From Bacteroidales bacterium (lineage in GTDB: Bacteria > Bacteroidota > Bacteroidia > Bacteroidales > UBA932): DNA of 64,000 nucleotides. The notes under the pieces were generated by a model. The model had not been told where the DNA came from, did not search any database, and saw only the letters and a program-made list of their open reading frames with translations. Below are positions 6,988 to 60,933 of this stretch, in pieces; position 1 is the first letter of the stretch; the number at the start of each line of letters is the position of its first letter. The stretch lies in NCBI GenBank assembly GCA_018434395.1, contig JAHDPK010000025.1, positions 8,374 to 72,373 of the forward strand, written 5' to 3'. The position numbers and the translations under genes were made by a program.

Positions 6988-7599
6988 GCACCATTCTCTC
7001 AAACCGCAAACAGAGCATTTAGGATTTCTTGCTACGCAAATATACCTTCCATGCAAAATTAGCCAGTGATGAGCTATCGCCCTTTTATCTTCAGGAATAT
7101 TGGCTGAAAGATCCTGTTCAACTCCATAAGGTGTTTTACTTTTTGAGAGACCAAGCCGCCTCGAAATTCTAAAAACGTGAGTGTCGACTGCAATTACGGG
7201 TTTCCCATAAACTATTGAAGCCACCACATTGGCTGTTTTTCTTCCCACACCCGGTAATTCCTGTAAAAGTAGTGGATCTGATGGTACTTTGGAATCAAAC
7301 CTCTCAACAATCATTTTGGACATGTGCACAAGATGCTTGCTTTTGCTGTTTGGATAAGTAACTGAGGAAATATATCTAAAAACTTCTTCTGGTGTAGCAG
7401 AAGCAAGTGATTCAGGCGAAGGATACTTTTTAAACAGCTCTTTAGTCACCAGATTTACCCTTTTGTCAGTACACTGAGCTGATAATATAACTGCTACAAG
7501 CAGTTGGAATGGTGATTCATAGGAAAGTTCACTGACAGCCAGTGGCATGTTTGTTTCAAACCATTCAATAACTGACTTATAACGTTCAGCAAGATCCAT
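6934..7599 (-). CDS. nth: endonuclease III (DNA glycosylase/AP lyase)
   Basis: HhH-GPD motif LPGVGRKTANVV and C-terminal Fe-S cluster loop C-x6-C-x2-C-x5-C (CVARNPKCSVCGLREWC). Confidence 0.9.
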   Translation of the reverse strand: MDLAERYKSVIEWFETNMPLAVSELSYESPFQLLVAVILSAQCTDKRVNLVTKELFKKYPSPESLASATPEEVFRYISSVTYPNSKSKHLVHMSKMIVERFDSKVPSDPLLLQELPGVGRKTANVVASIVYGKPVIAVDTHVFRISRRLGLSKSKTPYGVEQDLSANIPEDKRAIAHHWLILHGRYICVARNPKCSVCGLREWCLHYHVQGSTDLHISSTD

Positions 7600-7601
7600 T
7601 T

Positions 7602-8327
7602 CTATTCGTAAAAAAGCTGTGAAAAATCTATCTCCTGACTCTCTTCTATCTCTTTAAAATAGAGATCCTCACACAGCATCATCTTAGCAGGATATTTCTT
7701 CAATAAAGATCTATTGTGTGTCACCATGACAATTGCAGGCTCCTGTTCCTTATGTATAGTCATAAGCAGGTCCATGATTTCATAAGCAGTTTCAGTATCA
7801 AGATTGCCTGTAGGTTCATCAGCAAGAATAATCTGAGGTTCATTAAGAAGTGCCCTTGCTATAGCTATTCGCTGCTGTTCCCCTCCAGAGAGCTGATGAG
7901 GCATTTTATGAGCCTTAAGCAACATGCCGACACTTTCTAATTTCGATTTAATTTTTCTGTCAATCTCCTTATCATTTTTCCACCCTGTAGACTGAAGCAC
8001 AAATTTCAGATTATCATAGACACTCCTGTCGACAAGAAGTTGGAAATCCTGAAATACCACACCTATTTGACGTCTGAGGTAAGGTATCTGCTTCCTTCTG
8101 ATTGTTTTAAGATCAAAACCTGCTACAGCAGCTTCTCCCCTTGATACTGGAATTTCTCCAATAATAGTTTTGATTACCGAAGACTTTCCACTACCAACTC
8201 TTCCAATTATAAAAACAAAATCACCTGCTTTTACAGAAAAATTTACATCTGTCAAAATCAGATTTCCCTCCTTGATAATATCGACTCCACTAAGATTTAT
8301 CAAGTAATCATTATTGTCCGACGGCAT
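7602..8327 (-). CDS. ftsE: cell-division-type ABC ATPase FtsE
   Basis: Walker A GRVGSGKSS, signature LSGGEQQR, Walker B ILADEPTGNLD. FtsE-like size, no fused permease. Confidence 0.8.
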   Translation of the reverse strand: MPSDNNDYLINLSGVDIIKEGNLILTDVNFSVKAGDFVFIIGRVGSGKSSVIKTIIGEIPVSRGEAAVAGFDLKTIRRKQIPYLRRQIGVVFQDFQLLVDRSVYDNLKFVLQSTGWKNDKEIDRKIKSKLESVGMLLKAHKMPHQLSGGEQQRIAIARALLNEPQIILADEPTGNLDTETAYEIMDLLMTIHKEQEPAIVMVTHNRSLLKKYPAKMMLCEDLYFKEIEESQEIDFSQLFYE

Positions 8328-8398
8328 TATATTCGCTATTTCATTACAAAATTACTAATTTTGGGAGCTAAACAACAATAGAATATAAAATTTATTAA

Positions 8399-11300
8399 AT
8401 GAAGCGAGCAATAATAAGATATGGCGCTACTCTTATATTTATTTTAAATACACTTCCACTTCTTACAGTGTCGGCTCAGGAGTTACAGTTTATATCCAAA
8501 TATGCTGCACATTATGAAAAAGGAATTGAGCTTTACAGCAAAATGCTTTATCAGGCAGCAGACTCAGAATTTGATATGGCTCTTGAATCTCTTCAATCAA
8601 ATTCCCCGATTCAAAGAGCAGAAGTTGAAGGTTACAAAGTGCTCATTGCCATAAAACTCGACAGACCAAACAAAGAGGCTCTGGTAAAAGATTATGTGTC
8701 AAACTATCCATTTTCCAATCAACTTAGTTCAATATATTTGAGTTTTGCAACCCATTTTTTTGAACATGAAAACTATAATCGTTCTCTGGAACTCCTTAAC
8801 CAGGTTAATACACGTAATCTCAACACTTTGCAAAAAGCAGAATATAATTTTAAACTTGGATATTCAAACATGAGAGTCGGGAACCTTACAAAAGCACTTT
8901 CTATTTTCGATTCCATGAGTTCCGGTAAATACACTTCATTTACAAATCCCGCATTATATTATTCTGCATATATTCACTATATGCTCAGAGATTTCAAAAA
9001 AGCTAAAGAGGGATTTTCCAAAATCAAAGGAGATCCGCAATTTGACATTCTTGCAAGATATTACATTCTCGAATCTGATTTTATGCTCAAAGATTATGAC
9101 GCTGTCATTACCAATGGTGAAAAACTATACGAAAACTTGGCAGAAGAGTTCAAGGCAAAATGTGCAAGAATACTTTCAGAAGCATTTTACAACAAAGGAG
9201 AGACAGAAAAAGCCAAGATCTATTTTGATAGATATTCTGGCAGCAACAGCAGACTTTCGAGAAATGATCATTATTATGAAGGAATGATTTCATACAAACT
9301 AAACAATTATCCTGCAGCTATTGAATCCTTCAGTAAAGTCATCTCCATTGCAGATACTCTTTCTCAAAATGCCAAATACCACTTGGGCTACTGCTATGCT
9401 GAAATAAAAAACAAGCAGATGGCGCTTCAATTATTTAAGGAAGCTTCCGAAATGAACTTTGATAAACTTATCAAGGAAGATGCCATGTTTAACTATGCAA
9501 AACTGTCATTTGACCTTAACTCTGATATCACAAAATTCCAAAGTTATCTTGCCGAATATTCACCACCTGACACAAAATTTAATGAGATTCAAAACTATAT
9601 AGCAGGTCACTACTTGCTTTCGGGAGAATACAAAGCAGCCGTGGACGCGCTCAAACTTATCAGTCATCCCTCTGACAGAGATAAGGCCAACCTTCAAAAA
9701 GCCTCATTTCTAAGGGGTATGCAACTCATGGAAAAGGGCGGTTACCGAGAGGCGATTCAGAACTTTGAACTATCAAGAAGCTGTTATACCGGCAACATAT
9801 ATATTAAAAATCTTGCCTCTTTCTGGCTTGCAGAAGCTTATTTCCGAAATGGACAAATTCAAAAGTCTATTGAAATTAATTTAGCATTACTAAACAAGGA
9901 ATTAAGTTTCAAAAAAACATCTGAATATCCCGTTGCTGTTTTTAACCTGGCATACGGATATTTTAAGCTTCCTGATTACAAGAAAGCTGAAGAAAATTTT
10001 AAAAGATATCTTGCAAACTCATCATCTGTACCCGATTACATTTCAGAAGCAAAACTTCGCACTGGAGATTGTTTGTTTATGCAAAAAAATTACAGTGATG
10101 CTATTGAGTTCTATTCACAAGTTGACCCAAGAGACCAACTTTCCACTACCTACGCAAGATATCAAATGGCAATTGCATATGGTCTCCTTGGCAACGATAA
10201 CAAAAAGAAAGAGATACTCAAAAAAGAAGTGGCAGATTCCAAAAACAAAAATTGTTACTACCCAGAGATACTGTATGAACTTGGAAGAACTCTTGTTCAA
10301 AGAGGAGAAGGAGACGAAGCTGTCAAATATTTCAAAGAACTAACTGAAGAATATAAGGATACCCCATACTTTACTAAGGCTCTCCTTGAACTTGGTCTCA
10401 TATCTCTGAATTCTAAAGACTATTCCGGAGCAATTCAATATTACAAAACAATATTGGAAAAAGCTCCAGATTCCCCTGATGCTCAAAGCGCAATTGCTGG
10501 ACTTGAAAACATATATCAAGAAAGGGGAGAGGCAGAAGAATTTCTCTCATATCTCGACCAGAAAGGTCTTTCTACAACAAAGTCAGCAAGCGACAAAGAA
10601 TTGATGCTGTTTAATTCTGCCGAAAAACTTTATCTCTCTGGCAATGTAACAGGAGCAATAAGTGCACTTAACTCGTTCATTTCAAAGTATCCTTCCAGCG
10701 TCAAACTTTCACAAGCCTATTACTATCTTGGAGAACTCTATCTTAAATCTGATAAACCTGAACATGCTCTTGATGCATTCTTGACAGTAATGCAAAAAGG
10801 AGAAGGTTCTTTTGTGGAGCTAGCAACACTTAACTATGCAAGGATAGCCTATCGACTCGAAGACTACAAAAGAGCACTGGAAGGTTATTCCACACTTAGT
10901 ATCATTGCTAAACTTCCTAATAATAAAATAGAAGCAGAAGTGGGTAGAATTAATTCTTTTTTCATGGACAAACAGTACGAAAATGCTATTGCTGAAGCTC
11001 AAAAAATTAACATCAATAATCTTGGAGAATCTGACAGACTGAGAATCAAATATGTGATGGCTAAATCCTACTATCTCTTGGGAGAAAGAGATAAAGCAAT
11101 GCCATTATTAAGAGAGATAGCAAAGAACAAGATTTCTCCTGAAGGAGCTGAATGTCAATATTTAATAATTGCAAATGCTTTTGACAGTGGGGATTTTCAA
11201 ACTGTTGAAAAAGAGGTATTCGCATTCTCTGACTCAAACACCCCTCAAACATACTGGCTTGCAAAAAGTTTTATTCTTCTTGGCGACAGTTATGCTGAAA

Positions 11301-47162: not shown

Positions 47163-49070
47163 ATGGGAAAGATAATTGGAATTGACCTTGGTACAACCAA
47201 CTCCTGCGTTGCTGTAATGGAGGGAAATGAACCTACAGTCATAATTAACAGCGAAGGCAAAAGAACCACACCTTCGGTTGTTGCTTTTACCGAAAATGGT
47301 GAAAGAAAAGTTGGTGATCCTGCGAAAAGACAGGCTATAACAAATCCGGTAAGGACTATCTACTCAATTAAGAGATTCATGGGAGAGCCTTATGACAAGG
47401 TTAAAACTGAAATTGAACGTGTCACATACAAGGTTGAAAAGGGTGAAAATAATACAACCCGTATAAATATAGATGGGCGTCTTTATACTCCACAGGAGAT
47501 ATCAGCAATGATTCTTCAAAAGATGAAAAAGACAGCCGAAGACTATCTTGGACAAGAGGTTACTGAAGCTGTGATTACAGTTCCTGCATATTTCAGCGAT
47601 TCTCAAAGGCAAGCCACAAAAGAGGCCGGAGAGATAGCAGGCCTCAAAGTTAGAAGAATTATCAACGAACCTACAGCTGCTGCTCTCGCATATGGTCTTG
47701 ACAAGACTCATAAAGATATGAAGGTTGCCGTTTTCGACCTTGGTGGAGGTACATTCGATATATCTATACTCGAATTGGGTGATGGAGTATTTGAGGTAAA
47801 ATCCACAAATGGGGATACTCACCTTGGTGGTGATGACTTTGACCAAAAGATAATAGACTGGCTGGCAGAAGAGTTTATGAATGAAAACAGTGGCATTGAC
47901 CTGAGAAAAGATCCTATGGCGCTGCAAAGACTCAAGGAAGCAGCTGAAAAAGCTAAAATAGAGTTGTCAAGCCAAACAACCACAGAGATTAATCTTCCGT
48001 ACATCATGCCGGTTGATGGTATTCCTAAACACCTTGTAAAGACTTTGACTCGAGCAAAATTTGAACAACTTTGTGATTCCTTGATACAAAGAACTGTTGA
48101 ACCATGTCGCAAGGCATTAAGTGGTGCAAACCTTAAACCTTCGGACATCGATGAAGTAATTCTCGTTGGAGGTTCTACAAGAATACCTGCTGTACAACAG
48201 CTTGTTGAAAAATTCTTTGGCAAAACTCCAAGCAAAGGCGTTAACCCGGATGAGGTAGTTGCTGTAGGTGCTGCTATCCAGGGAGGTGTGCTTGCCGGAG
48301 ATGTTAAGGATGTGCTGTTACTCGATGTTACACCACTTTCTCTTGGTATCGAGACTTACGGTTCAGTAATGACAAAACTTATAGATGCAAATACAACTAT
48401 ACCAACCAGAAAGTCTGAAATCTTCAGCACTGCCAGCGACAATCAACCTTCTGTAGAGATTCACGTCCTTCAAGGTGAAAGACCAATGGCTAAGGACAAT
48501 AAAACTATCGGTCGTTTCCATCTGGACGGAATAGCTCCTGCTCCAAGAGGTGTGCCTCAAATTGAAGTTACCTTTGACATTGATGCTAACGGTATTCTGA
48601 ATGTCTCAGCAAAAGACAAAGGTACTGGCAAGGAGCAAAAAATACGTATTGAAGCATCATCAGGACTAACTGAGGCTGAAATCAAGAGAATGCGTGACGA
48701 AGCAAAAGCCAATGAAGCCGCTGATAGAGCCGAAAGAGAGAGAGTTGACAAAATCAACGCTGCAGATGGAATGATCTTCCAAACCGAGAAAAATCTTAAG
48801 GATTATGGAGACAAGATACCTGCAGACAAGAGAAGTGCAATTGAAAGTGCTCTTGCTCAACTCAAGGAAGCTCATAAAGCAGGAGATATAGCAGCCATCG
48901 ACAAAGCCATGGATAATATGAACAACGCATGGCACGCCGCTTCTGAAGACATGGCAAGAGCTGCTCAAAGTGGGCCTTCACAAAGTTCTTCCAGTGATTC
49001 AGGCTCTTCCACTGGCAGCAACGGCAGCGATAAAGAGGTCACCGATGTTGACTTTGAGGAAGTAAAGTAA
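47163..49070 (+). CDS. dnaK: molecular chaperone DnaK (Hsp70)
   Basis: [25 protein letters not shown] and a C-terminal acidic tail DVDFEEVK. Confidence 0.98.
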
Positions 49071-49105
49071 ACACAGAAACAAGTCTTAATCAAAAATAAG
49101 TAAAA

Positions 49106-49139
49106 AGCGGTAGTACAATGTGCTACTGCTTTTTTTTTG
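49106..49139 (+). terminator. rho-independent terminator of dnaK
   Basis: agcggtag / ctactgct 8-bp stem (one G-U pair) with a 9-nt loop, followed by T9 (49131-49139). Confidence 0.8.
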
Positions 49140-49430
49140 TTAAAAAAACTTACAATGTTCGGCGTTGGTCGCGCGTTGGACAAAAAATTGAGTATTCCTC
49201 ACAAAACGGCCAAAAGATACGTTTCCGACATCTGCAAAAACTGCAAGTTAATCCTTACAAAACACGATGAATACGCCAAAGTTTAACCCTCTAAGCCCCG
49301 CTTTCAAGTTTGAAACAAAATATTCTTTTTTTAAACTGGGATATCTAAAACTTATATTTATAAATCATTTTTAATATCAAAAAAAATCTTATTTTTGGAT
49401 AAAAGCTGTCAAGTCAAAATATCTACCACA

Positions 49431-49750
49431 ATGTTATTCTCAAACAGATTAAGACAATTACGAGCACAAAACAATCTACTACAACGCCAAATGTCTGCTG
49501 CTCTCCAATCGATACATGTCTATACAACAAAACAGAGCGCGGCGAACGCCGTGTTAAACGCGAACAGGTTATTGCACTTGCCAAAATATTCAAAGTAAAT
49601 CCAAACGATTTTTTATCCCTTTGGCTTTCCGACCGGATTATTGAAGTGTTAAAAAAAGAAAAAGAGTTGGCAGAAAAAGGATTGATTGTTGTACAAAAAT
49701 ATCTTAAAAATAATGTCAAAATTATCCGAAAGAATATTATCTATTATTGA
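49431..49750 (+). pseudogene. XRE-family HTH regulator disrupted by a 1-nt frameshift near 49506-49510
   Basis: One frame gives MLFSNRLRQLRAQNNLLQRQMSAALQ. From 49508 a different frame gives IDTCLYNKTERGERRVKREQVIALAKIFKVNPNDFLSLWLSDRIIEVLKKEKELAEKGL... Joined, they form a complete XRE HTH (…QMSAALQIDTCLYNKTERGER…). The sequence caatc looks like caaatc minus one A. Confidence 0.6.
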
Positions 49751-51050
49751 AGAATTAATAGACCAATACCAAGAGGACGACCGCTATAATCGTCCTTGGA
49801 TAATTGGTTTTAGCGGAGGAAAAGATTCTACCGTTCTGCTTACTTTGGTCTGGCTTGCACTTCTAAAAATCAAAGAAGACACCCCAAATGCAACTCTTAA
49901 GCGACAAGTTTATGTTGTTTGCAATGATACAATGGTAGAAAATCCTGTAATTGAAGAATATGTTAGTAATGTCCTACAAACCATTCAAAAAGCCGCCAAA
50001 GAACAGCAGCTACCGATTACAGTAAAAACTACCACACCACAAATTGAAGATACATTTTGGTGTTGCGTAATTGGCAAGGGTTATCCTGTGCCAAATAATT
50101 CATTCCGTTTCTGTACGGAAAAAATGAAGATTAAACCGACCTCAACATTAATAACCCATCAAGTCGCGGCGGACGGCGAAGCAATAATTCTAATCGGAAC
50201 ACGACTTGCAGAAAGTCAACAGCGGGCAAAATCAATCAAAAAACACGATATAAAAGGACACCGACTTTCAAAGCATCCGCTAAACCCAAACACTTACACT
50301 TATGCACCAATTAAAGAATTGATGTTAGAAGAAGTATGGTGGATTATCAATGCAATTCCTTCGCCTTGGGGCTTTGACAATCAGATTCTTTATAAAATCT
50401 ATATGGACGCTTCGGCAGACGATTACGAATGTCCTACTATTGTAACCAATGATTCCCACCGTAGCTGCGGACAAAGTCGCTTTGGTTGTTGGGTTTGCAC
50501 GGTTGTAAAAGAAGACAAATCAATGTCATCACTAATAAAAAACGGTGTTGGGTGGATGCAGCCCTTACTTGATTTTCGTAACAAATTGGTTGAAAATCGC
50601 AATGTTTCCGAAAAACGCAGTGAAACCCGGCGAAACGGACAAGCCGCCGTTGATAAAACAGGGCATAATATGGGCAACTACACAATGGAATACCGCATAC
50701 AACTTTTGCGGGAACTGCTCACAATCCAAAAAGACACACAGCAGTACCGTTCAAGCATTGACTTGATTACAAGCCAAGAACTGATTGCAATTCAAGTGAT
50801 GTGGTACAGGGACGGCAATTTTTCAACAACCGTAAATGATATTTACAACGAGGTTTATGGCTACGATTTGCAAAACGATAATATCAGTTTACAGGAAAGG
50901 CTTCTGCTCGAAAAATCATGCAACAATCCCGCTCATTATTCGCTCATTCAGGAGTTGCTTGCTTTGCAAAAAAATAAGGTACTGCTAATGAAAAAGTACG
51001 GACTTCAAACCGATTTAGAAGCTCGATTGGATAGTTTTATAAAGGGGTAA
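49713..51050 (+). CDS. dndC: DNA phosphorothioation sulfurtransferase DndC (PAPS-reductase/ATP-PPase fold)
   Basis: IIGFSGGKDST P-loop (SGGKDS at 49812-49829), FRFCTEKMKIKP and the Cys cluster CGQSRFGCWVCT. ATG at 49713. Confidence 0.9.
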   Translation: MSKLSERILSIIEELIDQYQEDDRYNRPWIIGFSGGKDSTVLLTLVWLALLKIKEDTPNATLKRQVYVVCNDTMVENPVIEEYVSNVLQTIQKAAKEQQLPITVKTTTPQIEDTFWCCVIGKGYPVPNNSFRFCTEKMKIKPTSTLITHQVAADGEAIILIGTRLAESQQRAKSIKKHDIKGHRLSKHPLNPNTYTYAPIKELMLEEVWWIINAIPSPWGFDNQILYKIYMDASADDYECPTIVTNDSHRSCGQSRFGCWVCTVVKEDKSMSSLIKNGVGWMQPLLDFRNKLVENRNVSEKRSETRRNGQAAVDKTGHNMGNYTMEYRIQLLRELLTIQKDTQQYRSSIDLITSQELIAIQVMWYRDGNFSTTVNDIYNEVYGYDLQNDNISLQERLLLEKSCNNPAHYSLIQELLALQKNKVLLMKKYGLQTDLEARLDSFIKG

Positions 51051-51054
51051 CAGT

Positions 51055-53172
51055 ATGAAAATAAAAACCATAGAACTAAATAATTACCGCCTCTATAAAG
51101 GGATTAATAAAATTGTTTTTCCAAATGGGAACAACAAGAATTTATACTTGATTTCTGGAGAAAACGGCTTTGGTAAAACTACATTTTTGCATTCTCTATT
51201 ATGGTGCTTATATGGTCGTTTGATGATAGATATTGATGAAACATTTCGTAAAGAAATGTCGAATGGAGGATACAACAATATGGTTATCAATAATCTAAAT
51301 CAAATTTGCAGACAAAAATTGCATACTGAAGTTACCCAAAGTATTCTTACACGCATAAAAAAAGAAGGTTATTCTGTTGATACTGAATTCATAAAAGAAT
51401 GGTCTCAATATTATGTTACTTTGGAATTTACAGATATACTTATTCCGTCAATTCCGTGTCAATCGTTGAAAATTATTCGTTCGTACGATATTCTTTTAGA
51501 TAAAGAAAATGTTGAAATTCTAATTGATGGCTTAATAAACGAATTGACAAGCGAAATTGGAAATGAGGTTTTTATTAATGATTTTATTCTCAATAAAGAT
51601 ATTGCTCGCTTCTTCTTTTTCGATTCAGAAAAAATTGTATCACTCGCTGAAACTAATACCATAGATGAAAAGCGCAAACTTTGTTCGGCTTACAATGAGG
51701 TTTTGGGAGTGAAAAAATACGAGGACTTGAAGAAAAACCTTGAAAATATGCGCTTACGTTTCCGTCGTAAATCTGATGATGTTGATAGCCGCAACAAATT
51801 GAACAGTTTACTTTCAAAACAAAAATCTCTGAATGAAACCATTGCTGAACAAGAACAACAAACCGCCGACCTCGACAGCCAACTGATATTGTTAAGAAAG
51901 GAAGATGAAAACCTGCAAATGCTACTTTTGCGAGAAGGCAATGGTACAACTATCGAAGAACTCAATCGGCAGGAAGCACTTTTGGAAACCACTCGAAAAA
52001 AAGATGCTGAATACAAACAACAACTCAAACTGTTTTTGGAATACGCACCTTTTGCAATTTCCGGAAAACTGTTACAGCAGACAAAAGTACAGATAGAGAA
52101 GGATTTTAATATTCTTCAATCTCAAAATGATGTTAGAAATCAGAATTTTCTATTAAGCAATATCAATGCTGAAATGCAGCAAGTGTTCAACAATATAAAA
52201 ATTTCTGCCAAAGACAAAAAACAATTAGTTGATTCGTTTAACAATATTATTTCCAAATATCAAACCAATACAACAGACGAAACGCCATTATTGAGAGTAA
52301 GCAAGGAAGATTTCGACGAGTTTTTGGCTGTATATTCAAATATTACAACAACTTACAGAGTTGAATTTGAGTACCTTGCAGATGATTACCGTAAAAACAA
52401 ACAGGTAATGGAACGTACAGCCAGGAATATATCTAATATGAACAGTAAAGAAAATGATAATATAATAAAATCTATTCGTAGACGAAAAAATGAAAGTGAA
52501 CGAAGAATTGCTGAATTGGAACAAAAAATCCGTCAGTTGCACGAGGAGCGTGGCGCAATAAACAAAGAATTAGCAGTTATAAGTCGCCAAATTTCGGAGT
52601 TAAGTAAAAAAGTGAGTCTTGATGATAGTAACAGCAAGAAAGATAAAGTTGCTGAGCAACTTATATCAGAACTAAATACATTTCTTATTTTACTGAAAAA
52701 AGAAAAAAAATCGGCTCTTGAAAGCCGTATAAAAACCACGATGAACAACTTAATGCATAAGGCAGATTTTATCCAAAATGTTGATGTTGTGGTGGTAGAT
52801 GATATAATAGATATAAATCTTTATGCTACAGTGGGTAGCATAATAAAAAAAGAATCTTTATCGAAAGGGGAGCAACAACTCTTTGCAACTTCTCTACTCA
52901 AAGCACTTGTGGAAGAATCAGGTATACAATTTCCTGTCTTTATTGACAGTCCCTTACAGAAGTTTGATAAGAGCCACGCAAAAAAAATCATTACAGAGTT
53001 TTACCCAACAGTTTCCAAACAGGTTATTTTATTCCCATTGTTACATAAAGAGTTAACTGAAGAAGAATTGGAAACAATGAAGCCTTATGTGAATTCCGCT
53101 TTTGTGCTGAAAAATAATAATTTATATTCACACATTCAGCAGGTTGATATTAATAATTTAATGAAAGAGTAA
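51055..53172 (+). CDS. dndD: DNA phosphorothioation ABC/SMC-like ATPase DndD
   Basis: IELNNYRLYKG...ISGENGFGKTTFLHSLLWCLYG (Walker A at 51157-51183), long central coiled coil, signature LSKGEQQLFA and Walker B FPVFIDSPL. Confidence 0.85.
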   Translation: MKIKTIELNNYRLYKGINKIVFPNGNNKNLYLISGENGFGKTTFLHSLLWCLYGRLMIDIDETFRKEMSNGGYNNMVINNLNQICRQKLHTEVTQSILTRIKKEGYSVDTEFIKEWSQYYVTLEFTDILIPSIPCQSLKIIRSYDILLDKENVEILIDGLINELTSEIGNEVFINDFILNKDIARFFFFDSEKIVSLAETNTIDEKRKLCSAYNEVLGVKKYEDLKKNLENMRLRFRRKSDDVDSRNKLNSLLSKQKSLNETIAEQEQQTADLDSQLILLRKEDENLQMLLLREGNGTTIEELNRQEALLETTRKKDAEYKQQLKLFLEYAPFAISGKLLQQTKVQIEKDFNILQSQNDVRNQNFLLSNINAEMQQVFNNIKISAKDKKQLVDSFNNIISKYQTNTTDETPLLRVSKEDFDEFLAVYSNITTTYRVEFEYLADDYRKNKQVMERTARNISNMNSKENDNIIKSIRRRKNESERRIAELEQKIRQLHEERGAINKELAVISRQISELSKKVSLDDSNSKKDKVAEQLISELNTFLILLKKEKKSALESRIKTTMNNLMHKADFIQNVDVVVVDDIIDINLYATVGSIIKKESLSKGEQQLFATSLLKALVEESGIQFPVFIDSPLQKFDKSHAKKIITEFYPTVSKQVILFPLLHKELTEEELETMKPYVNSAFVLKNNNLYSHIQQVDINNLMKE

Positions 53173-53175
53173 GTT

Positions 53176-53571
53176 ATGTTTTCGCAGATACGGACGAGTA
53201 GTCAAAACCGAGAAATTGTTGTTGAATTAACGCGTAAATTCAATTTGGGTGCTGAAAATATAATTGCCCGAATTGCGCTTGGATATTCATTACAATCAGG
53301 GATTAAATTCTCACCGTTGGATGTAAAAGACTCAGGCGGTAAGGTATATAGCAAAAATGTGTTGTTTGGAAATAACTATTCGATCTATGAATTTCTAATT
53401 TGTACACATTATCAGATTAACAGTAACGACAAAGATTTACCTCGGTATTTTAAATTGCACCTTGATGATGGGCTGCAACGTATATATGATGACATGAAAG
53501 ACAATCCCAATTTAGTGGGATATGATTATTTATTTGAAAAAATACAAAATGGTTTGGGTGAATTATGTTAA
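53176..53571 (+). CDS. dndE: DNA sulfur modification protein DndE
   Basis: 131 aa directly after dndD. IRTSSQNREIVVELTRKFNLGAENIIARIALGYSL parallels the DndE N-terminus as I remember it (…TGITPNIAARIAF..S…). Confidence 0.7.
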   Translation: MFSQIRTSSQNREIVVELTRKFNLGAENIIARIALGYSLQSGIKFSPLDVKDSGGKVYSKNVLFGNNYSIYEFLICTHYQINSNDKDLPRYFKLHLDDGLQRIYDDMKDNPNLVGYDYLFEKIQNGLGELC

Positions 53572-55868
53572 AAGGAGATTTAAAAAAAATTACAATTAAA
53601 GATTTGCTGAGAGATGGCAAAATATCTGTTCGCACAAGTAATTGTTGCTTTAATGCAGCCTTTGAATCTCTTTTTGATATATTAAAATATTATGAAAGTA
53701 GACATTCTTTTTTTAACATTAGAAATGCTGGAAGAAAAACTTGTTCTGAATTAGAAAATTTATGTAAAGAATATATTCCGCAAATTGAAATATCCGTTGA
53801 TACAGATGGCTTTTCTGAGAATGAAAATGAGGCTGAGAATGAAAATGTAAGACAAGCCGAAGTAGAAATTTTAATTAAGGAGGATGTTATTGGAGCAATT
53901 AATAATAAACTAATAGATGACAAAGATATTCTTTCTTATTTGGGAGTAAGGCAAAAGGAAATTCTTGAGAAAAAATTTGAAGATTGTATTAAAAAATATT
54001 CCATTCGCACAAAAAATCGACTAACTTCCGTTGGCTTTGATAATTTTGTGATTAATTATTTATTTGTCGAAAACCAGGCTCTATTAAAGATTAATGGTTT
54101 AGGAAAAAAGAGTTTAGAAGAGGCTATAGATTTGAAAAATAAAATAAAAGAGGAATGCCTATATTTAATTAATTTACCCGAAGAAGATATAGCAAGATTA
54201 AATTTGGTTCGCAAAAAAGTAGATATCATTCTAAATAGCTTTGTTGATGAATTTTATAAGATAAATAATTATTTGCCAATGTTTTGGATTTTGGAACAAA
54301 ATCTCGTTACAAGCAAAAATCGCAATATTGACATTCTGATAGACACATTCCCTGTTTTTCAAAATTACCAATCCAGAACATTTAAAGATATTGCAGCAAA
54401 ATATGATATAACAAGAAAAAGAATTAGGCAAATACGTAACTACACATTTCACAATACATTTGAAATAACCAATGAAGTAATTGATTATAAGAAAAATAGT
54501 GATTTAATCAAATACGCCGAATTGTTACAAAATAAAGATGATTGGAAATATATTTTAGAATTTTTGCAGGGTAAAGAGGTTATAAACCAAGAATCATTTG
54601 AGATTCAAGAATTATTGAAAAAAGAACAATGCAATCTATCGGCTCTGTTTGTATTGCAAATCATTGCATATATATTCAGGGATAAATACTTTCTTTTGGG
54701 CGGATTGAGCATATCAAATCAAAGTAAAAATAACACATTTCTCATCCGTAAAGAATTCGCAGACATTTTCAATTTTGAAAAATTTATTGAAGAATTTGCG
54801 AGCCATATTGCTGAAAATGAAACAGAATATGATTTAAATGTTGACGAGTTTTTATCTAATAGTACGTGTTGGGTTCATGGGATTGATCTATATAAATTTG
54901 ATAATATAGTTCACATTGTGAAAGAGATTATATTAAATGAATTTCACTTATATTCTAATCTTGACGGTTTAATTACGATTCCTTCAACGAAAGGAAGAAA
55001 CCCGCGTGATGTGGTTTATGATATACTAAAAGTAAAAGGCGAACCAATGCACCTCCATGATATTTTTGTTGAGTTTAAGAAAATTATGCCAGAACATAAA
55101 TACACACAAGAAGATAATCCAGATAGATTACGCCCCTATTTACAAAAGCACGAATCCATATCATACAGAAACAGAAGGAGTATTTACACACTAAAAGAGT
55201 GGAAACACATACGGACAGGAACAATACGTGATGCTATCATAAATTTTTTGGAAGATAAAGATTTACCACAATCAGTAGATGATATTACAGAGTATGTTTT
55301 ACTGCATTTCCCAGAAACAAACATTGCAAGTGTGCGAACAAGTATGTTTAATGATACACAAAAACGATTTTCGTTTTTTGGTGATGGCCTGTTTGGATTA
55401 GTAAGCAAAGAATATCCTGCCGAATACAAAGAAATAAAACAGCAGGAAGGACAAAGAAAATCGTTTGAACAACGACTTTATGATTTAGAAAAGTTTCTTT
55501 CCGAAAACGACCATTACCCTTTTTCTTCTTCCGATAACGAAGAAGAAAACTCTTTGTATCGTTGGTGGCGAATAATAAATAGAGACCCAAAATTGTCCGA
55601 ACTCCAAAAGGCAGAAATAGAAAGAATAAAAAATCAATATGCAGATTTCGATACAGAAAAAAAAGTTTACGAATGGTTTTGTCATTTCAATGATTTTAAA
55701 CTTTTTGTGCTTGAAAATCACCGTTTACCTTCATCAAACGGTCCAGAAAAATTTTTGTATGGTTGGTTCCGTAGAGCAAAAGACGATTTTTTAAACGATC
55801 GTTTAAATGAGAAACAAAGGACAAAATATGCAGAATTTTTTAAAGAGATAAAGTATGTTGAAAGATAA
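53565..55868 (+). CDS. 767-aa multi-DNA-binding-domain protein (2x RpoA-alphaCTD-like HhH, sigma70-r4-like HTH, 2x HARE-HTH-like, 2x helicase-associated (HA)-like repeats)
   Basis: aa 9-68 and 128-190 match the alphaCTD pattern (SVRTSNC..NA...N.G.K..SE.). aa 272-293 is DIAAKYDITRKRIRQIRN. aa 481-616 holds two wHTH-like units. aa 634-762 holds W/F-rich repeats. No catalytic motif was seen. Confidence 0.55.
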   Translation: MLKGDLKKITIKDLLRDGKISVRTSNCCFNAAFESLFDILKYYESRHSFFNIRNAGRKTCSELENLCKEYIPQIEISVDTDGFSENENEAENENVRQAEVEILIKEDVIGAINNKLIDDKDILSYLGVRQKEILEKKFEDCIKKYSIRTKNRLTSVGFDNFVINYLFVENQALLKINGLGKKSLEEAIDLKNKIKEECLYLINLPEEDIARLNLVRKKVDIILNSFVDEFYKINNYLPMFWILEQNLVTSKNRNIDILIDTFPVFQNYQSRTFKDIAAKYDITRKRIRQIRNYTFHNTFEITNEVIDYKKNSDLIKYAELLQNKDDWKYILEFLQGKEVINQESFEIQELLKKEQCNLSALFVLQIIAYIFRDKYFLLGGLSISNQSKNNTFLIRKEFADIFNFEKFIEEFASHIAENETEYDLNVDEFLSNSTCWVHGIDLYKFDNIVHIVKEIILNEFHLYSNLDGLITIPSTKGRNPRDVVYDILKVKGEPMHLHDIFVEFKKIMPEHKYTQEDNPDRLRPYLQKHESISYRNRRSIYTLKEWKHIRTGTIRDAIINFLEDKDLPQSVDDITEYVLLHFPETNIASVRTSMFNDTQKRFSFFGDGLFGLVSKEYPAEYKEIKQQEGQRKSFEQRLYDLEKFLSENDHYPFSSSDNEEENSLYRWWRIINRDPKLSELQKAEIERIKNQYADFDTEKKVYEWFCHFNDFKLFVLENHRLPSSNGPEKFLYGWFRRAKDDFLNDRLNEKQRTKYAEFFKEIKYVER

Positions 55869-58023
55869 AGATTTCAAATACAGATATTCAACAGGCAGAA
55901 AAGATTTGCCGATTGATTTTTTTGAGTTGGCATTGTCTAATAGCACTAAACTTGATATAGGGTTGGGTTATTTTAGTAGTGCTTCTTTTAATATCCTTTC
56001 TGTCGGCTTTGCTCGTTTTATCTGTAATGGAGGAAATATGCGTTTGTATATCAATCAATATCTTACCGAAGATGATTACAAACTACTACAGAACAATGAA
56101 ACTATTGATTTTGAAGAACGTATATTACAATCTTTTTTCTTACTAAAAACTACCTTATCGAAAAGGGACGAACATTTTTTCAAATGTTTGTCATATCTTA
56201 TTAGGAATAAAAGAATTGATATTAAAATAGTTATACCAAAGGATGGTGGTTTGGCACACGAAAAGTTTGGTATTTTTACAGATGATAACAACGATAAAGT
56301 GTCTTTTACCGGCTCAATGAATTTAACAGCTGCGGCATTGGTAAAAAACATTGAAACAATTGAATGTACTTGTTCATGGAAAGGTGAAGACAACACGGAA
56401 CGTATAGAAATAAGCGAACAAGATTTTGCGGAAATTTGGACAGGGGCAAACGACAATGTGTTAGTTTTTCCTGCAAAGAAATTCTGCCAAGAGATAGTAA
56501 AAACTTTTCCCAAAGTAGATTTGGACGAGTTGTTATTACAAGAGAAAGAAATAATTAAGAAACTCACAAACAAACAGATAGAAGAAATATCGACGGAAAA
56601 GAAACAAGTACAATTGCCTCATTTCCCTTACAAATATTCTGACGGTGCAAGACCGTATCAAATACAAGCGTACGAAGCGTGGGTTAAAAATGGTAAGCAG
56701 GGTATTTTTGCAATGGCAACAGGAACAGGAAAAACAATTACTTCTTTAAATTGCGCTTTGCAGGAGTACCATAAAGACAAATCGTATCAACTTTTGATTT
56801 TAGTTCCGACCATTGCTTTAGTTGAACAGTGGATTAATGAAATTGGCTTGTTTGACTTCAAAAATATTATCGAAATATATTCTGAAAATTCACAGTGGCG
56901 CAGACAAATTGTTTCACTAAAAAACAAAATTCAACAAGGCAGTAACGAAAATTTTGTCATTGTATCTACTTATCAATCATTTACAAACGATGATTTTCAA
57001 CAAATTTTACCGAAACTTCCCGATACAATGCTACTGATTGCAGATGAAGCACACAATATCGGCTCTGAAAATGTTAGAGCGGCTTTTAGAAAAATGAAAA
57101 TTAAAAAGCGCATTGCATTGTCGGCAACTCCGAACCGGATATACGACCAAGAAGGAACAGCCGAATTGGAAAGTTTTTTTAATGATAAACCGCCTTATGT
57201 TTATAGTTTTCCAATGAGCCAAGCAATAAAAGAAGGTCGTTTAATGGAGTACTGTTATTATCCAAAAATGGTTTATCTCAACGAGCCGGAAATGGATAAG
57301 TATGTGGAATATACTAAAAAATTAATGAATCTGTTTGATAGTGAAACAGGTAAGCTCAGAAACGAAGACGAAGCGACAAAAATTTTAATGTTGCGGAAAC
57401 AAGTATTGCATAAAGCAGAAGATAAAATGCGAGTATTGCGAGAAATTATTACAGAAATCGGACAGGACAAATTAAAATACTGTTTTGTTTATGTTCCCGA
57501 AGGCTATTCTGAAAACGAGGATGAAAGCATATTGCAAAGAATGCTATACACTATCAAAGAAGCATTTCCTAAAACAACTTGCAATACATATACTGGAAAT
57601 AACAACAAAAAAGAGCGTTCCGCTATTTTGAGTGGTTTTGAAAACGGCGACATAGCTGTTTTACTCGCAATGAAATGTTTAGACGAGGGCGTTGATGTTC
57701 CTAGAGCCCAATATGGTATTTTTGCGTCAAGCACAGGTAATCCTCGACAATTTATTCAACGTCGTGGTCGTTTACTACGTAAACACCCGGACAAAACATT
57801 TGCTTACATATATGATATGATTGTAGTACCTGATTTTCAATCACCACAATACTCGAATGATTTTTTCAGAATGGAAAGGTCATTGGTAAGAGGCGAACTA
57901 GCACGAGTGGCATATTTTGCTGATTTGGCATCTAACACTCATTCTGCGAAAGAGGTTTTGCAGGGTCTTGCAGACTATTATCAATTAAATTTATCAGAAC
58001 TAATTTTAAGTATAAATCAATAA
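55855..58023 (+). CDS. PLD-family (HKD) nuclease domain fused to an SF2 DEAH-box helicase (type III restriction Res-like)
   Basis: HKD motif AHEKFGIFTDD...FTGSMNLT (H135/K137 at 56257-56265). Helicase motif I AMATGTGKT (56716-56736), motif II DEAH (57043-57054), SATP, and motif VI QRRGRLLR. Confidence 0.85.
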   Translation: MLKDKDFKYRYSTGRKDLPIDFFELALSNSTKLDIGLGYFSSASFNILSVGFARFICNGGNMRLYINQYLTEDDYKLLQNNETIDFEERILQSFFLLKTTLSKRDEHFFKCLSYLIRNKRIDIKIVIPKDGGLAHEKFGIFTDDNNDKVSFTGSMNLTAAALVKNIETIECTCSWKGEDNTERIEISEQDFAEIWTGANDNVLVFPAKKFCQEIVKTFPKVDLDELLLQEKEIIKKLTNKQIEEISTEKKQVQLPHFPYKYSDGARPYQIQAYEAWVKNGKQGIFAMATGTGKTITSLNCALQEYHKDKSYQLLILVPTIALVEQWINEIGLFDFKNIIEIYSENSQWRRQIVSLKNKIQQGSNENFVIVSTYQSFTNDDFQQILPKLPDTMLLIADEAHNIGSENVRAAFRKMKIKKRIALSATPNRIYDQEGTAELESFFNDKPPYVYSFPMSQAIKEGRLMEYCYYPKMVYLNEPEMDKYVEYTKKLMNLFDSETGKLRNEDEATKILMLRKQVLHKAEDKMRVLREIITEIGQDKLKYCFVYVPEGYSENEDESILQRMLYTIKEAFPKTTCNTYTGNNNKKERSAILSGFENGDIAVLLAMKCLDEGVDVPRAQYGIFASSTGNPRQFIQRRGRLLRKHPDKTFAYIYDMIVVPDFQSPQYSNDFFRMERSLVRGELARVAYFADLASNTHSAKEVLQGLADYYQLNLSELILSINQ

Positions 58024-58034
58024 ATTTTCAAGAA

Positions 58035-58253
58035 ATGACAGCAGAAGATATTTTCAACGAGGTGATGAAATCGCCAGAATTAACAGACATTTTCAACATT
58101 CCACAAGAAGTTCTGAATAATATGGATTACAATGCGAGTTCGGAATATCAGGTCATTGAAGTTATCAAAGCAATTATTCGTGGGGAAGAAAACCATATGG
58201 ATAGTAACGCAATTTTTAGAAGTATTCAAAATCAAATAATACACTTAGGGTAA
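58035..58253 (+). CDS. 72-aa acidic hypothetical protein
   Basis: ORF tightly packed between the helicase (11-nt gap) and the ATPase (3-nt gap). No recognisable motif. Confidence 0.4.
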   Translation: MTAEDIFNEVMKSPELTDIFNIPQEVLNNMDYNASSEYQVIEVIKAIIRGEENHMDSNAIFRSIQNQIIHLG

Positions 58254-58256
58254 AAT

Positions 58257-60428
58257 ATGGCGACAATAATTAAATCCATTAGTTTCCAAAACTTCTACAA
58301 CTATTACGGAAATTTTGAGCAAAACACCTACCGTTTTACGACAGGAATCAATATTGTTAATGCTGATAACAATATGGGAAAATCCAAATTCTACAACGGT
58401 ATTCTCTGGATTTTGAATAATGCTGTTTACGATTCAGACTTAAAAAGAATGATAAGCGACACCTCCAGTCCAAGATTAGATTCTAATTATTTTAAAAAAA
58501 TGGTCTCGGGAAAAGCAAAAGCCGAAGAAACGGAGTTTGATATGGGAGTAAAAATTGAATTTGAAGAAAATAACACTCAATATTCTGTGTCAAAAATTGT
58601 GCATTGTAAAAAAAATATTTCTGATTGGGATTTTATTGAAAGATTAGATGTTTCTGAAACCACCAATGGCAGAACAATTCCTATTTTTGATATTGAGGAT
58701 AAGAAAAATAGAATACAAAAAATCATTCCTGTTGAATTACGAAACTACGCGTTGCTGCAAGGTGAATCAATGGAAAAATTAGTTGATTTATCCTCTCGCG
58801 CTGGTCTTTCCTCAACCATTGAAACTTTGGCTGGAATTTCAAATCTCATTGATATTTATTTGACTTGTGGTGATTTGTCAAAGAAAGCAAAGAGACTTTT
58901 AAACGACAAAGAAACTGAAGTGAACCTCAATAATGATCGAATCAAAATTTTAATTGAGGAAAGAGAGCGACTTGAAAAGTTCAAAGAAAACAACCTGTAT
59001 CAAATTGATACATATAAGGAAGAATTATCAAAAGCCCAAGCAAGGAAAGATGAGTTGGAAGCATTGCAGCTTAACGCAGCTAAACGAGAAAAATTTAGAG
59101 AAATTCAACGGCATCTCCAAGTGGAAATCAACACTCTGAAAAACAATAAGAAAGAAGCGGAGAAAAACATTACTTCATTATTATTTGCTAACAATCCACC
59201 TTGGTTGCTGATGGGCTTCCAAAACTCTATAGAATTGTTTGGGCAGAAACGCGACAAACTGAATAAAGACCTTACTTTGCAAAGTGCAGCAAAAGACCCA
59301 ACGATTCTTTTACCTGAAGGCTCTCCCGATATCCCGTCATTAAAAAGAATGTTAGAAACTGAAAAATGTGAAGTTTGCGGACGTCCAGCTCCAAAAGGTT
59401 CTGAATTTTGGGAACATATCAAAATGGTTATGGAACGTCCTCGAAATGTCGAAAATACAAATTCTAACAATTTTACTACTTTTTACGGAGATATTCAGAA
59501 AACTGTCGGTTCATTTTTGTTGAATATCCCAGAAATACCACAAGAAATTGAAAAATATCGCGACAAAATCAATGACATTGACAATAAAATCAGAGAGAAA
59601 CAGGAAGATTACAACATTGCAAAACAGGAATTTATGAGTGCAGGCGGTAATGAAAACGAATCAGGTAATACAGATAAAAAAAATATTGATGATCATTCAT
59701 TAGCAGAACGCACAATAGAAGATAAAAAACGCTTAATTGAAATGGCTAACGACCAAATTAGGCAATGGAATATTCGATTGCAACAGATTGAAAAAGAATT
59801 GGATTCTATCAATCAAAGTTCAGAAATCACACAATATCGTAATTTCAAAGATATGATGTGTTATATTGAGTCAATGTTTTTAAACTCGAAAGAACGCATT
59901 TTTGATAGGATTTTGAACTCGTTAGAAATCAAAGCTAATCAAAAATATAGCGAACTTACAGCGGGCAATCAGGTTGCAGGTGGTCGCTTATGTTTCAAAA
60001 AACAAGAAGATAATACCGTTCAGGTTTCCATAAGGAACATAAATGACAACGAACTAACAGGACTTGGATCAGGGTTCCAGCGAATGAAACAACTGTCTAT
60101 CGTAATGGCAATTATTTCTTCGAGAATTGGCAATCAACACTTTGATTTTCCGTTTATATCAGATGCACCGTTTTCCGAGTTTGGCGACAACTTTATTTAC
60201 AACTTTTTCCGAATTTCCCCTCAGGTATTTACGCAAAGTATCATACTTATCAAAGATTTATATGACCCCAATACAGATAATTATTTGAATGAAAAGGGGA
60301 ACAAAATTTTAGAGAAGATGAGAAGCGGCGAGATTTGCGGCACTTTCTATGTAAATACTGTACTAGAAAGAGCTGATGCAACAAATTTAGTTACAAATAA
60401 TAAATGTTATTTTCCAGATAAATTCTAA
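58257..60428 (+). CDS. Rad50/SMC/DndD-like ATPase with central CxxC
   Basis: N-terminal ISFQNFYNY...NADNNMGKSKF (Walker A at 58362-58385) and long K/E-rich coiled-coil segments. CEVC lies at aa 371-374 of 723 (59367-59378). C-terminal signature-like GLGSGFQRMKQLS and Walker B-like FPFISDAPF. Confidence 0.75.
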   Translation: MATIIKSISFQNFYNYYGNFEQNTYRFTTGINIVNADNNMGKSKFYNGILWILNNAVYDSDLKRMISDTSSPRLDSNYFKKMVSGKAKAEETEFDMGVKIEFEENNTQYSVSKIVHCKKNISDWDFIERLDVSETTNGRTIPIFDIEDKKNRIQKIIPVELRNYALLQGESMEKLVDLSSRAGLSSTIETLAGISNLIDIYLTCGDLSKKAKRLLNDKETEVNLNNDRIKILIEERERLEKFKENNLYQIDTYKEELSKAQARKDELEALQLNAAKREKFREIQRHLQVEINTLKNNKKEAEKNITSLLFANNPPWLLMGFQNSIELFGQKRDKLNKDLTLQSAAKDPTILLPEGSPDIPSLKRMLETEKCEVCGRPAPKGSEFWEHIKMVMERPRNVENTNSNNFTTFYGDIQKTVGSFLLNIPEIPQEIEKYRDKINDIDNKIREKQEDYNIAKQEFMSAGGNENESGNTDKKNIDDHSLAERTIEDKKRLIEMANDQIRQWNIRLQQIEKELDSINQSSEITQYRNFKDMMCYIESMFLNSKERIFDRILNSLEIKANQKYSELTAGNQVAGGRLCFKKQEDNTVQVSIRNINDNELTGLGSGFQRMKQLSIVMAIISSRIGNQHFDFPFISDAPFSEFGDNFIYNFFRISPQVFTQSIILIKDLYDPNTDNYLNEKGNKILEKMRSGEICGTFYVNTVLERADATNLVTNNKCYFPDKF

Positions 60429-60432
60429 AACA

Positions 60433-60933
60433 ATGGACGGTTCAGTATTAAAAGATAAAATAGGCCAAAAAAGACCCGGGTATAGAGAACAATATCGTTC
60501 TTTGATTGAAAGTATTTCGGTTAAAGGAGACACAAGCGGAAAAGGGGATTTTTCTGCCTTTGGAGCTTTCTATCAAACCTATATGTATGCTTTTGTTATT
60601 GGTTACAAATTAGGAACACCAAAATTTATAAAAAAAGGTGAAAATACAATCAATTTTGCTTCTTTCGTAGATTGGAAGCCAACTTTAGTAAGGGATTTTA
60701 TTTTGATGCTGTTACTCAATGATACAGAAAAATATAGTGTTCCATATTCTTGGTTAGAATTGGAGAATGCTAACGAAGAAACGATTGAGAATTTTATTGC
60801 CGAATTGTTTCGACAAATGGAAGGTTATGCAAATGCGGGTTTTGAATATTTGCAAGACAAGTGGGATAATGAAAAGATTGAGTTTCAAGACCCATTTGTG
60901 TTTGTTAATTTTTTATTGGGCTTGAAAGAGTAA
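60433..60933 (+). CDS. 166-aa hypothetical protein, last intact gene of the dnd-linked operon
   Basis: 4-nt gap after the ATPase gene. No catalytic motif. It may belong to the database family named DNA phosphorothioation-associated protein 4, but I cannot verify this. Confidence 0.45.
   Translation: MDGSVLKDKIGQKRPGYREQYRSLIESISVKGDTSGKGDFSAFGAFYQTYMYAFVIGYKLGTPKFIKKGENTINFASFVDWKPTLVRDFILMLLLNDTEKYSVPYSWLELENANEETIENFIAELFRQMEGYANAGFEYLQDKWDNEKIEFQDPFVFVNFLLGLKE

Follow-up and report, generated by a model that had tools for sequence, protein, structure and literature searches.

What might a protein assembled from pieces that resemble the transcription machinery do in the middle of a DNA phosphorothioation (PT) operon? 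This question is raised by a 64,000-nt stretch of DNA from a Bacteroidales bacterium (contig JAHDPK010000025.1, positions 8,374 to 72,373; the whole stretch is hereafter called the window). Between dndE and pbeA, a gene for a nuclease-helicase, the window contains an open reading frame (ORF) of 767 amino acids (aa) at 53565–55868 on the + strand, and we use "X" as a working name for its multi-module product. The ATG of X (53565) precedes the stop codon of dndE (TAA, 53569–53571), giving an overlap of 7 nt, and the ATG of pbeA (55855) precedes the stop codon of X (TAA, 55866–55868), giving an overlap of 14 nt. An earlier reading of this DNA (the original prediction) had reported the ORF and both overlaps, and they were confirmed. 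We propose, with moderate confidence, that X is a non-catalytic, multi-module DNA-reading or targeting subunit acting together with the coiled-coil ABC-ATPase/DndE machinery of PT-linked defence. The modules of X are listed below, with the evidence on which each was assigned; CTD, HTH, HhH and HA stand for C-terminal domain, helix-turn-helix, helix-hairpin-helix and helicase-associated, and AF2 for AlphaFold2.

53589–53780, + strand: alpha-CTD-like (HhH)2 domain 1, aa 9–72 (Pfam, PDB profile)
53919–54173, + strand: alpha-CTD-like domain 2, aa 119–203 (sub-profile)
54279–54461, + strand: sigma-70 region 4 HTH, aa 239–299 (Pfam, PDB profile)
54462–54998, + strand: acidic alpha/beta family-specific region with two winged-helix-like subdomains, aa 300–478 (AF2 model)
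54999–55211, + strand: winged helix 1 (wH1), HARE-HTH-like but borderline, aa 479–549 (profile)
55212–55430, + strand: winged helix 2 (wH2), a tandem duplicate of wH1, aa 550–622 (hhalign)
55452–55865, + strand: two HA three-helix repeats, aa 630–767 (family-level profiles)

The original prediction had seen two domains like the CTD of the RNA polymerase (RNAP) alpha subunit at the N-terminus, followed by a sigma-70 region 4 HTH, and these assignments held in profile comparisons. The Pfam model RNA_pol_A_CTD (PF03118) matched aa 19–65 of X with an E-value of 5.4e-6 (26.5 bits vs a curated cut-off of 23.8) and was found in 37 of 53 relatives (best E=1.6e-17); the family profile matched RpoA in the PDB at this first domain with E=6.5e-8. 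The second alpha-CTD was not found with the single window sequence. Its sub-profile matched RpoA CTD structures only (best E=1.2e-5), and the domain is absent in about 15 of the 53 relatives. In alpha-CTD-1, residues R23, N26, C27, G56, K58 and T59 are kept and align with VRSSNC and NLGKKS of Francisella alpha-1, and in alpha-CTD-2 a conserved R/N and a G-x-K-(S/T) motif also align with VR..NC and G-K-K-S of RpoA. We take the six residues of the first domain to be equivalent to R265, N268, C269, G296, K298 and S299 in E. coli numbering, and the aligned VR..NC and G-K-K-S residues to correspond to the DNA-binding "265 determinant" of E. coli alpha.

The HTH that follows was matched by Pfam Sigma70_r4 (PF04545) at aa 257–295 (E=1.2e-5, 25.2 bits vs a cut-off of 24.1), the same model was found in 48 of 53 family members, and matches to sigma region 4 in the PDB reached E=3e-5. 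The recognition helix reads TRKRIRQIR in the window, with TR(E/K)R(I/V)RQI as the family form. R286, R288 and Q289 are conserved in at least 90% of the family, including relatives at 20–25% identity; at position 285, glutamate is conserved in at least 90% of the family and the window X has lysine. These modules do not extend to the rest of either parent protein. In Pfam searches X gave no match to RNA_pol_A_bac or RNA_pol_L of the alpha N-terminal domain, and none to Sigma70_r2 or Sigma70_r3; the NCBIfam RpoA model scored 23 bits vs a cut-off of 353, and TIGR02937 scored 15 bits vs a cut-off of 42.9. Because it lacks the alpha N-terminal domain and sigma regions 1–3, X is neither an alpha subunit nor a sigma factor.

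In the C-terminal half, the two winged helices share an H-H-H-beta-beta topology in the AF2 model and are homologous to each other (hhalign 95%, E=3.5e-8). The wH1 profile matched the F-112 winged helix of SSV1 (E=8e-6) and forkhead domains. Pfam HARE-HTH (PF05066) matched 6 of 53 relatives (best E=7.6e-6) and 2 of 31, and did not match the window X at E≤0.1; similarity to the RNAP delta subunit was weak (TIGR04567, E=0.052; PDB delta 8x6g_E, E=0.24). Of the HARE-HTH claim in the original prediction, therefore, the two winged helices are real and arose by tandem duplication, but the HARE label is only borderline; generic winged helices match better. A profile of the wH1-wH2 pair retrieved only 12 short fragments from a word-indexed protein database. 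As a separate observation, a Segatella copri plasmid (NZ_CP085933.1; locus L047) encodes at 7465–9426 a 653-aa hypothetical protein that ends in the wH1-wH2 pair (30.6% identity); its gene lies outside any dnd context, near dprA and a DEAD-box helicase gene. The possibility that X reads PT through a winged helix like that of the PT-binding SBD was rejected, since the wH pair aligned with a genuine SBD (that of protein P0189, described below) at an hhalign probability of only 0.5%; SBD was also absent among the PDB matches of the X modules searched.

The domain ancestry of X and the weak delta-like signal of wH1 are all that favour a tether to RNAP, in which sigma region 4 on the beta-flap, or the HA and wH modules on RNAP, would couple restriction to transcription of the invader. 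X lacks sigma regions 2 and 3 as well as the alpha N-terminal domain, the delta/HARE likeness is borderline (E=0.05–0.24), and no genomic linkage of RNAP genes to the X family was found in any locus examined. The remoteness of X from genuine RpoA and sigma domains speaks against a tether too. We give this explanation the slimmest of chances; the RNAP link offered by the original prediction had been pure inference.

The two HA repeats likewise named in the original prediction were recovered at the level of the family. Pfam HA (PF03457) was found in 14 of 53 and 7 of 31 relatives (best E=9.2e-20), with E=2e-9 for the first repeat of the relative at locus L025, and the window X alone gave no Pfam match. 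Structure matches were obtained with PDB 2kta on the second repeat (HA2; E=1.3e-3) and, by fold, with HA-helicases of giant viruses in BFVD (E=5.9e-4). For the region between sigma region 4 and wH1 (aa 300–478), to which the original prediction had given no assignment, no Pfam match was found and a PDB profile search was empty. Modelled alone with AF2, it gave a mean local confidence (pLDDT) of 83 and a global score (pTM) of 0.79. A catalytic domain in this region was rejected, because the best Foldseek match to the PDB had E=0.22 and only weak matches to tandem winged helices were returned; the likeness of the model to Nse1/3, KITE-like partners of SMC-type ATPases, was very weak (Foldseek probability ~0.1). 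The model of full-length X had a mean pLDDT of 84.8 and a pTM of 0.45, which means that the domains are well folded and that their mutual arrangement is without confidence.

No enzymatic domain was detected in X by Pfam, PADLOC, NCBIfam, PDB sequence search or Foldseek, as the original prediction had held. X matched none of the PADLOC families at E≤0.01, and no DndB/DGQHR domain was matched in Pfam or PADLOC. As a whole, these comparisons support the view that X is a non-catalytic array of DNA-binding-type modules resembling the transcription machinery.

X belongs to a large family. Whereas an initial search gave 72 clusters, all "hypothetical" and all from Bacteroidales, a HMMER search against 1.84 billion cluster representatives returned 976 matches at E≤1e-30, the 150th of which still had E=1e-88; counted in clusters at 50% identity, the family comprises ~980. 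Its members are annotated only as "hypothetical" or "sigma factor-like". With hidden Markov models built from our own alignments, the order (alpha-CTD)n, sigma region 4, middle region, wH, wH, HA, HA was found to be conserved among 149 representatives, in which the number of alpha-CTD copies varied: none in 8, one in 34, two in 84, three in 14 and four in 9.

The genes around X, all of which lie on the + strand from dnaK through pbeD, are as follows.

47163–49070, + strand: dnaK, the upstream neighbour of the operon
49102–49134: strong terminator-like stem-loop 3′ of dnaK
49395–49750, + strand: remnant of a small XRE/HTH_3 controller-like gene at the operon head, frameshifted in the window
49686–51050, + strand: dndC, PAPS-reductase-family sulfurtransferase (PADLOC DndC, E=1.2e-140; Pfam PAPS_reduct)
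51055–53172, + strand: dndD, coiled-coil ABC ATPase (PADLOC PbeC/DndD, E=3e-115 and 1e-75; Pfam AAA_23)
53176–53571, + strand: dndE (Pfam DndE, E=1.4e-24)
55855–58023, + strand: pbeA, HKD/PLD nuclease and superfamily 2 helicase (PADLOC PbeA, TIGR04095, Pfam)
58035–58253, + strand: pbeB candidate, a small protein of 72 aa (position between pbeA and pbeC)
58257–60428, + strand: pbeC, CxC-type coiled-coil ABC ATPase (PADLOC PbeC, E=3.9e-23)
60433–60933, + strand: pbeD, putative DndE cognate, dnd_assoc_4-like, 166 aa (TIGR04062)

The window system is therefore the known DndCDE-PbeABCD system plus one extra gene, X, and not a new system; the PbeABCD identity and the 72-aa pbeB candidate had been missed in the original prediction. 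The product of pbeA matched PADLOC PbeA with E=5.8e-252, Pfam PLDc_2, ResIII and Helicase_C, and TIGR04095 (dnd_restrict_1, "DNA phosphorothioation system restriction enzyme") with E=1.2e-127. The pbeB candidate has no match to any model and is kept in related loci at 46–97% identity. A CEVCG motif, predicted to form a Zn hook, occurs around the middle of the translated pbeC product. The pbeD product matched TIGR04062 with E=0.0036 only, under the cut-off, and its homologues in four loci (L059, L060, L063 and L064) carry the precomputed annotation PF27807, DNA_S_mod_dnd_assoc_4. No dndA adjoins the dnd-pbe cluster in the window. A gene for HsdM, a type I restriction-modification (R-M) methyltransferase, begins at 62452, ~1.5 kb 3′ of pbeD, and runs past the window end at 64000 (E=2e-183 against the EcoR124II M protein), which places the dnd-pbe cluster in a defence island. 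The GC content is 29.6% for the X gene, 33.3% for the dnd-pbe cluster and 36.9% for the whole window.

At the head of the operon, the XRE/HTH_3 gene is split directly upstream of dndC, with its N-terminal part in the ORF 49395–49598 and its C-terminal part at 49646–49750 in another frame, by a frameshift or a sequencing error. An intact 96-aa XRE-type gene is found in locus L006 (4081–4371), where it overlaps the ATG of dndC by 4 nt, and in L055 a 74-aa HTH_26/HTH_3 gene precedes dndC. The true start of dndC in the window is probably the ATG at 49713, not the TTG at 49686. A conserved operator upstream of dndC was considered and rejected, since the conserved block in the alignment is the small XRE-type gene itself.

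Genomic contexts of X relatives were compared in 46 loci from a scan of species-representative genomes, 12 of which are short contigs or lack annotation, and in ten further representatives sampled from the exhaustive HMMER search. The order dndCDE-X-pbeABCD was found in 16 of the 46 loci. Eleven of these (L002–L008, L011, L012, L022 and L023) are complete, with starts and stops overlapping throughout, three (L001, L009 and L010) show the order up to the contig end, and two are more divergent variants in which the X-like gene still lies between the dnd and pbe genes (L031 has no dndC in the locus and no detected pbeB; in L044 the pbe cluster is inverted). A Dnd-Pbe context was also found in four of the ten sampled representatives (P0095, P0130, P0142 and, partially, on a short contig, P0120). 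The embedding in a dnd/defence operon that had been predicted is thus tight, with a conserved gene order. Two of the loci with dnd-X-pbe genes carry unexpected labels, L004 (a Methanobrevibacter sp. metagenome-assembled genome, MAG) and L008 (a Clostridiales MAG). Their DndC, DndD, DndE and PbeA share 70–89% identity with the window proteins, and L008 hardly differs from L023, which comes from a Bacteroidales MAG. Both contigs were probably mis-binned.

Other members of the family stand beside different machines. In 11 of the 46 loci, from Flavobacteriia, Chitinophagia, Cytophagia and Prolixibacteraceae, an X-family gene at 22–27% identity is the first gene of an island with a DndD-like gene and a DndE/HerA-FtsK gene. 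Nine of these islands are complete and two (L033 and L035) are cut by a contig end, and the same island recurs in two of the ten sampled representatives (P0173 and P0212). The three-gene islands (L025, 10001–16031; L026, L027, L029, L032, L036, L037, L039, L046, L058 and L062) are without dndC and without a recognisable nuclease; that of L025 is flanked by housekeeping genes, and in L058 there is an extra 65-aa ORF and all genes overlap. The DndD and DndE-HerA pair has been mentioned in the literature without a third gene (PMC10853773). In two BREX type 4 loci (L038, 430–8904; L040, 9008–17501), of which one belongs to an Eggerthellaceae and one to a Bacteroidales genome, an X-like gene (24–25% identity in the wH region) lies directly 5′ of brxP and is followed by brxP, a 149-aa ORF and brxC/pglY; BREX type 4, too, is a phosphorothioation system (PMC12914056).

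In locus L061 (743–9452), from another of the ten sampled representatives, an N6/N4 methylase gene is followed by pbeA, a 62-aa ORF, pbeC, pbeD and a gene for a 1052-aa X-family protein, P0189, whose C-terminal 166 residues are an SBD (PDB 8h0l, SBD-Hga, E=2.6e-12). This fusion occurred in one of 227 retrieved proteins, most of them of the X family. The original prediction had suggested a sensor of DNA or its modification state, and P0189 gives this indirect support through its PT-binding SBD, although the window X itself has no recognisable PT-reading domain. Two further contexts were seen. At L034 (285–5916), an 804-aa X-like gene is convergent with genes for a DUF4420 (PD-(D/E)XK) protein and a Z1-domain SWI2/SNF2 ATPase, a restriction-type module. 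At L057 (185–9426), one of the ten sampled representatives, an 884-aa X-family protein is encoded by the last gene of a cluster whose other products are proteins of 390, 553 and 652 aa, the last with a weak radical-SAM match, and a GHKL-type ATPase (HATPase_c_3, E=1.3e-7). The profile matches are significant and the homologues occur mostly in Dnd, Pbe and other defence contexts, so that neither of the outcomes which the original prediction had named as refuting it was observed. The proposal of the original prediction that X is a specific adaptor for the PLD-helicase is weakened, because the family also stands beside DndD/DndE-HerA and BREX type 4 without PbeA and because ~20% of its members stand alone.

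A partial counterpart of X was found in Rhodobacterales. In all four dnd(B)CDEA-pbeABCD loci from this order, two on plasmids and two chromosomal, a gene for a ~1000-aa "sigma factor-like HTH DNA-binding protein" abuts the pbeA start (L048, 4885–7965; L050, 3912–6965; L063, 9001–12078; L064, 9001–11943), an example being WP_152460869.1 of the Ruegeria sp. THAF33 plasmid. This protein has a strong Sigma70_r4 match (E=1.7e-13) preceded by alpha-CTD/HhH repeats and is homologous to X only over the alpha-CTD, alpha-CTD and sigma region 4 half (hhalign 96%, E=2e-9); no alignment of its C-terminal ~490 aa with the middle, wH or HA modules of X was found. Its gene is placed after dndA with an intergenic gap and has no overlap with dndE, and in the R. 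atlantica locus DndB is encoded by a separate gene.

These arrangements bear on whether X might simply be a transcription factor for the pbe or dnd-pbe genes, which would bind promoters or compete with RNAP as a counterpart of DndB or of R-M controller proteins. Every confidently assigned N-terminal module derives from promoter-recognition parts of RNAP. In Rhodobacterales and the DndD/DndE-HerA islands the gene comes first in its module after an intergenic gap, copies that stand alone among housekeeping genes look like ordinary regulators, and the NCBI annotation of the Ruegeria counterpart is "sigma factor-like HTH DNA-binding protein", with a gene ontology term for transcription. In the window and in every close locus with both junctions, however, X sits inside the operon and overlaps its neighbours on both sides, an arrangement that suggests stoichiometric co-production. 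The role of regulator also already has candidates, because a small XRE-type regulator gene stands at the operon head and DndB coexists with the counterpart in R. atlantica. Moreover, a length of 650–1070 aa with 8–10 modules, a variable number of alpha-CTDs and fast divergence would be unusual for an operon repressor, and the same family stands beside at least four types of system whose promoters are unrelated. We therefore regard a regulatory role as unlikely.

The pattern of divergence within the family bears on another explanation. Among close loci, X is the least conserved protein of the operon (43–62% identity vs 69–89% for DndC, DndD, DndE and PbeA), and within X the C-terminal wH/HA part is 62–67% identical to that of the window, compared with 41–59% for the N-terminal half. 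Phages target RNAP surfaces, as in the case of T4 AsiA and Alt/ModA (anti-sigma factors and alpha-CTD modifiers), and X might be a decoy of host RNAP surfaces that is bound or modified by phage takeover proteins and reports infection to the Pbe effector. Such a decoy would explain the otherwise puzzling presence of alpha-CTDs, sigma region 4 and a delta-like winged helix in one defence-linked protein, and an RNAP-like half that evolves fastest and varies in copy number is what would be expected at a host-virus interface. A faithful mimic should, however, be closer to RpoA and sigma than the remote likeness observed here (profile E=1e-5 to 1e-8; only E=0.34 for the single X sequence against the PDB). 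The residues that are conserved are the DNA-contacting ones, the SBD of P0189 points to DNA as the ligand, and stand-alone copies in housekeeping contexts do not suit a sensor that depends on an effector. We consider a decoy very unlikely. A phage origin of X, or a role as an anti-defence gene, was rejected, as no relatives turned up in 50,697 phage records searched with tblastn or in IMG/VR contigs.

We now return to X as a proposed DNA-reading subunit. That DNA would be its ligand is suggested by the kept DNA-contact residues, by the basic character of sigma region 4, the alpha-CTDs, wH1 and HA2, and by the one SBD fusion. We postulate that coupled translation yields X along with DndE and PbeA, and that the basic modules of X bind DNA, possibly at A/T-rich, promoter-like sites. 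X bound to DNA would then position the scanning pairs of DndD/PbeC with DndE, and the nuclease-helicase PbeA, or license their action, presumably in a complex with them. Docking may fall to the conserved C-terminal wH/HA half, and specificity to the N-terminal half, which evolves fast, varies in alpha-CTD number and would confer whatever preference X has for sequence or modification.

Several observations weigh against this reading. In PDB profile searches and hhalign comparisons, no PT-reading domain was detected in the window X. Overall, X is acidic (net charge −14), and the middle region (−12), the linker between the alpha-CTDs (−9) and wH2 (−4) are poor candidates for DNA binders. About one fifth of the sampled members, with the same architecture, stand alone among housekeeping genes (L018, L019, L041 and L042 of the 46 loci; L054 and L056 of the ten sampled representatives), which means that the family can function without adjacent dnd or pbe genes; these copies are the main evidence against a strictly defence-bound role. 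Finally, three of five sampled plasmid Pbe loci, those of Lactiplantibacillus, Pseudanabaena and Halococcus, are without X, as is the haloarchaeal PbeABCD that works experimentally (PMC6459918), so that X is accessory to Pbe.

A more specific version of our proposal would take the N-terminal half as a single-chain copy of the upstream-promoter reader of the RNAP holoenzyme, with the alpha-CTDs recognising the UP element and sigma region 4 the −35 element, so that X finds or occupies strong promoter-like sites on unmodified invading DNA. We hold this to be distinctly improbable; in a related variant, the RNAP-like surfaces would act as bait for phage takeover proteins. Were it true, a promoter-reading X would let a PT-dependent system block phage transcription and replication without degrading DNA, and a block that spares DNA is the unexplained behaviour reported for Pbe. 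Views on the mechanism of Dnd-Pbe still conflict: Xiong et al. observed that replication was arrested while the DNA stayed uncleaved (PMC6459918), and the Aravind group holds the counter-view that the HKD nuclease must cut (PMC10853773).

X is a conserved, translationally coupled fifth component, found in two phyla and built with RNAP-derived modules. It marks naturally occurring versions of the system in which it may be possible to separate the choice of target from the ATPase and nuclease components. Since the X family links four PT-type or related systems, namely Dnd-Pbe, DndD/DndE-HerA, BREX type 4 and methylase-Pbe, the data suggest a common accessory "reader" for ABC-ATPase/DndE-type machines.

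Among described systems, the closest is DndCDEA-PbeABCD, which is centred on CxC ABC ATPases (Xiong et al. 2019, PMC6459918; Krishnan/Aravind 2024, PMC10853773). The window shares its canonical order, with dndCDE followed by PbeA, the 72-aa ORF at the position of PbeB, PbeC with its CxxC motif and a PbeD-like protein. It differs in that four pbe genes have been described (PMC6459918, PMC10853773), none of which is like X in architecture, and no X-like gene is mentioned in either paper. A description of X was not found in targeted literature searches, whose coverage is incomplete, so that an older mention of X or its parts is possible, for example as the gene named "MTaX1" in methylase-linked CxC systems (PMC10853773). 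The system is thus known, and the X component is new as far as the checked literature goes.

Non-catalytic subunits with several winged helices have a precedent in PT-associated restriction modules, since DndG/DptG of DndFGH has been described as a triad of winged HTH domains (PMC10853773); the DNA-binding domain of FokI is another multi-winged-HTH reader, and a fold search with the whole X model returned tandem-wH arrays with FokI weakly among them. X has no sequence match or significant fold match to DndG/DptG, however, adds alpha-CTD, sigma region 4 and HA modules, and is partnered with ABC-ATPase/DndE pairs and not with DndF/DndH. HARE-HTH domains fused to restriction endonucleases near Dnd genes have been proposed to discriminate modified DNA (Aravind & Iyer 2012, via PMC10853773). 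X is likewise Dnd-linked and has a winged helix whose likeness to HARE is borderline, a minority of its family matching Pfam HARE-HTH; it has no nuclease fusion, and its winged helix is duplicated and lies inside a much larger array. To the SBD PT readers (the ScoMcrA-type SBD and SBD-Hga, 8h0l), X is related only via P0189. Compared with RpoA and sigma factors, X matches the alpha-CTD and sigma-70 region 4 models above their cut-offs and keeps the DNA-contact residues, but it joins both types of module in one chain, with zero to four alpha-CTDs in the family, and is a rare case of their reuse outside RNAP.

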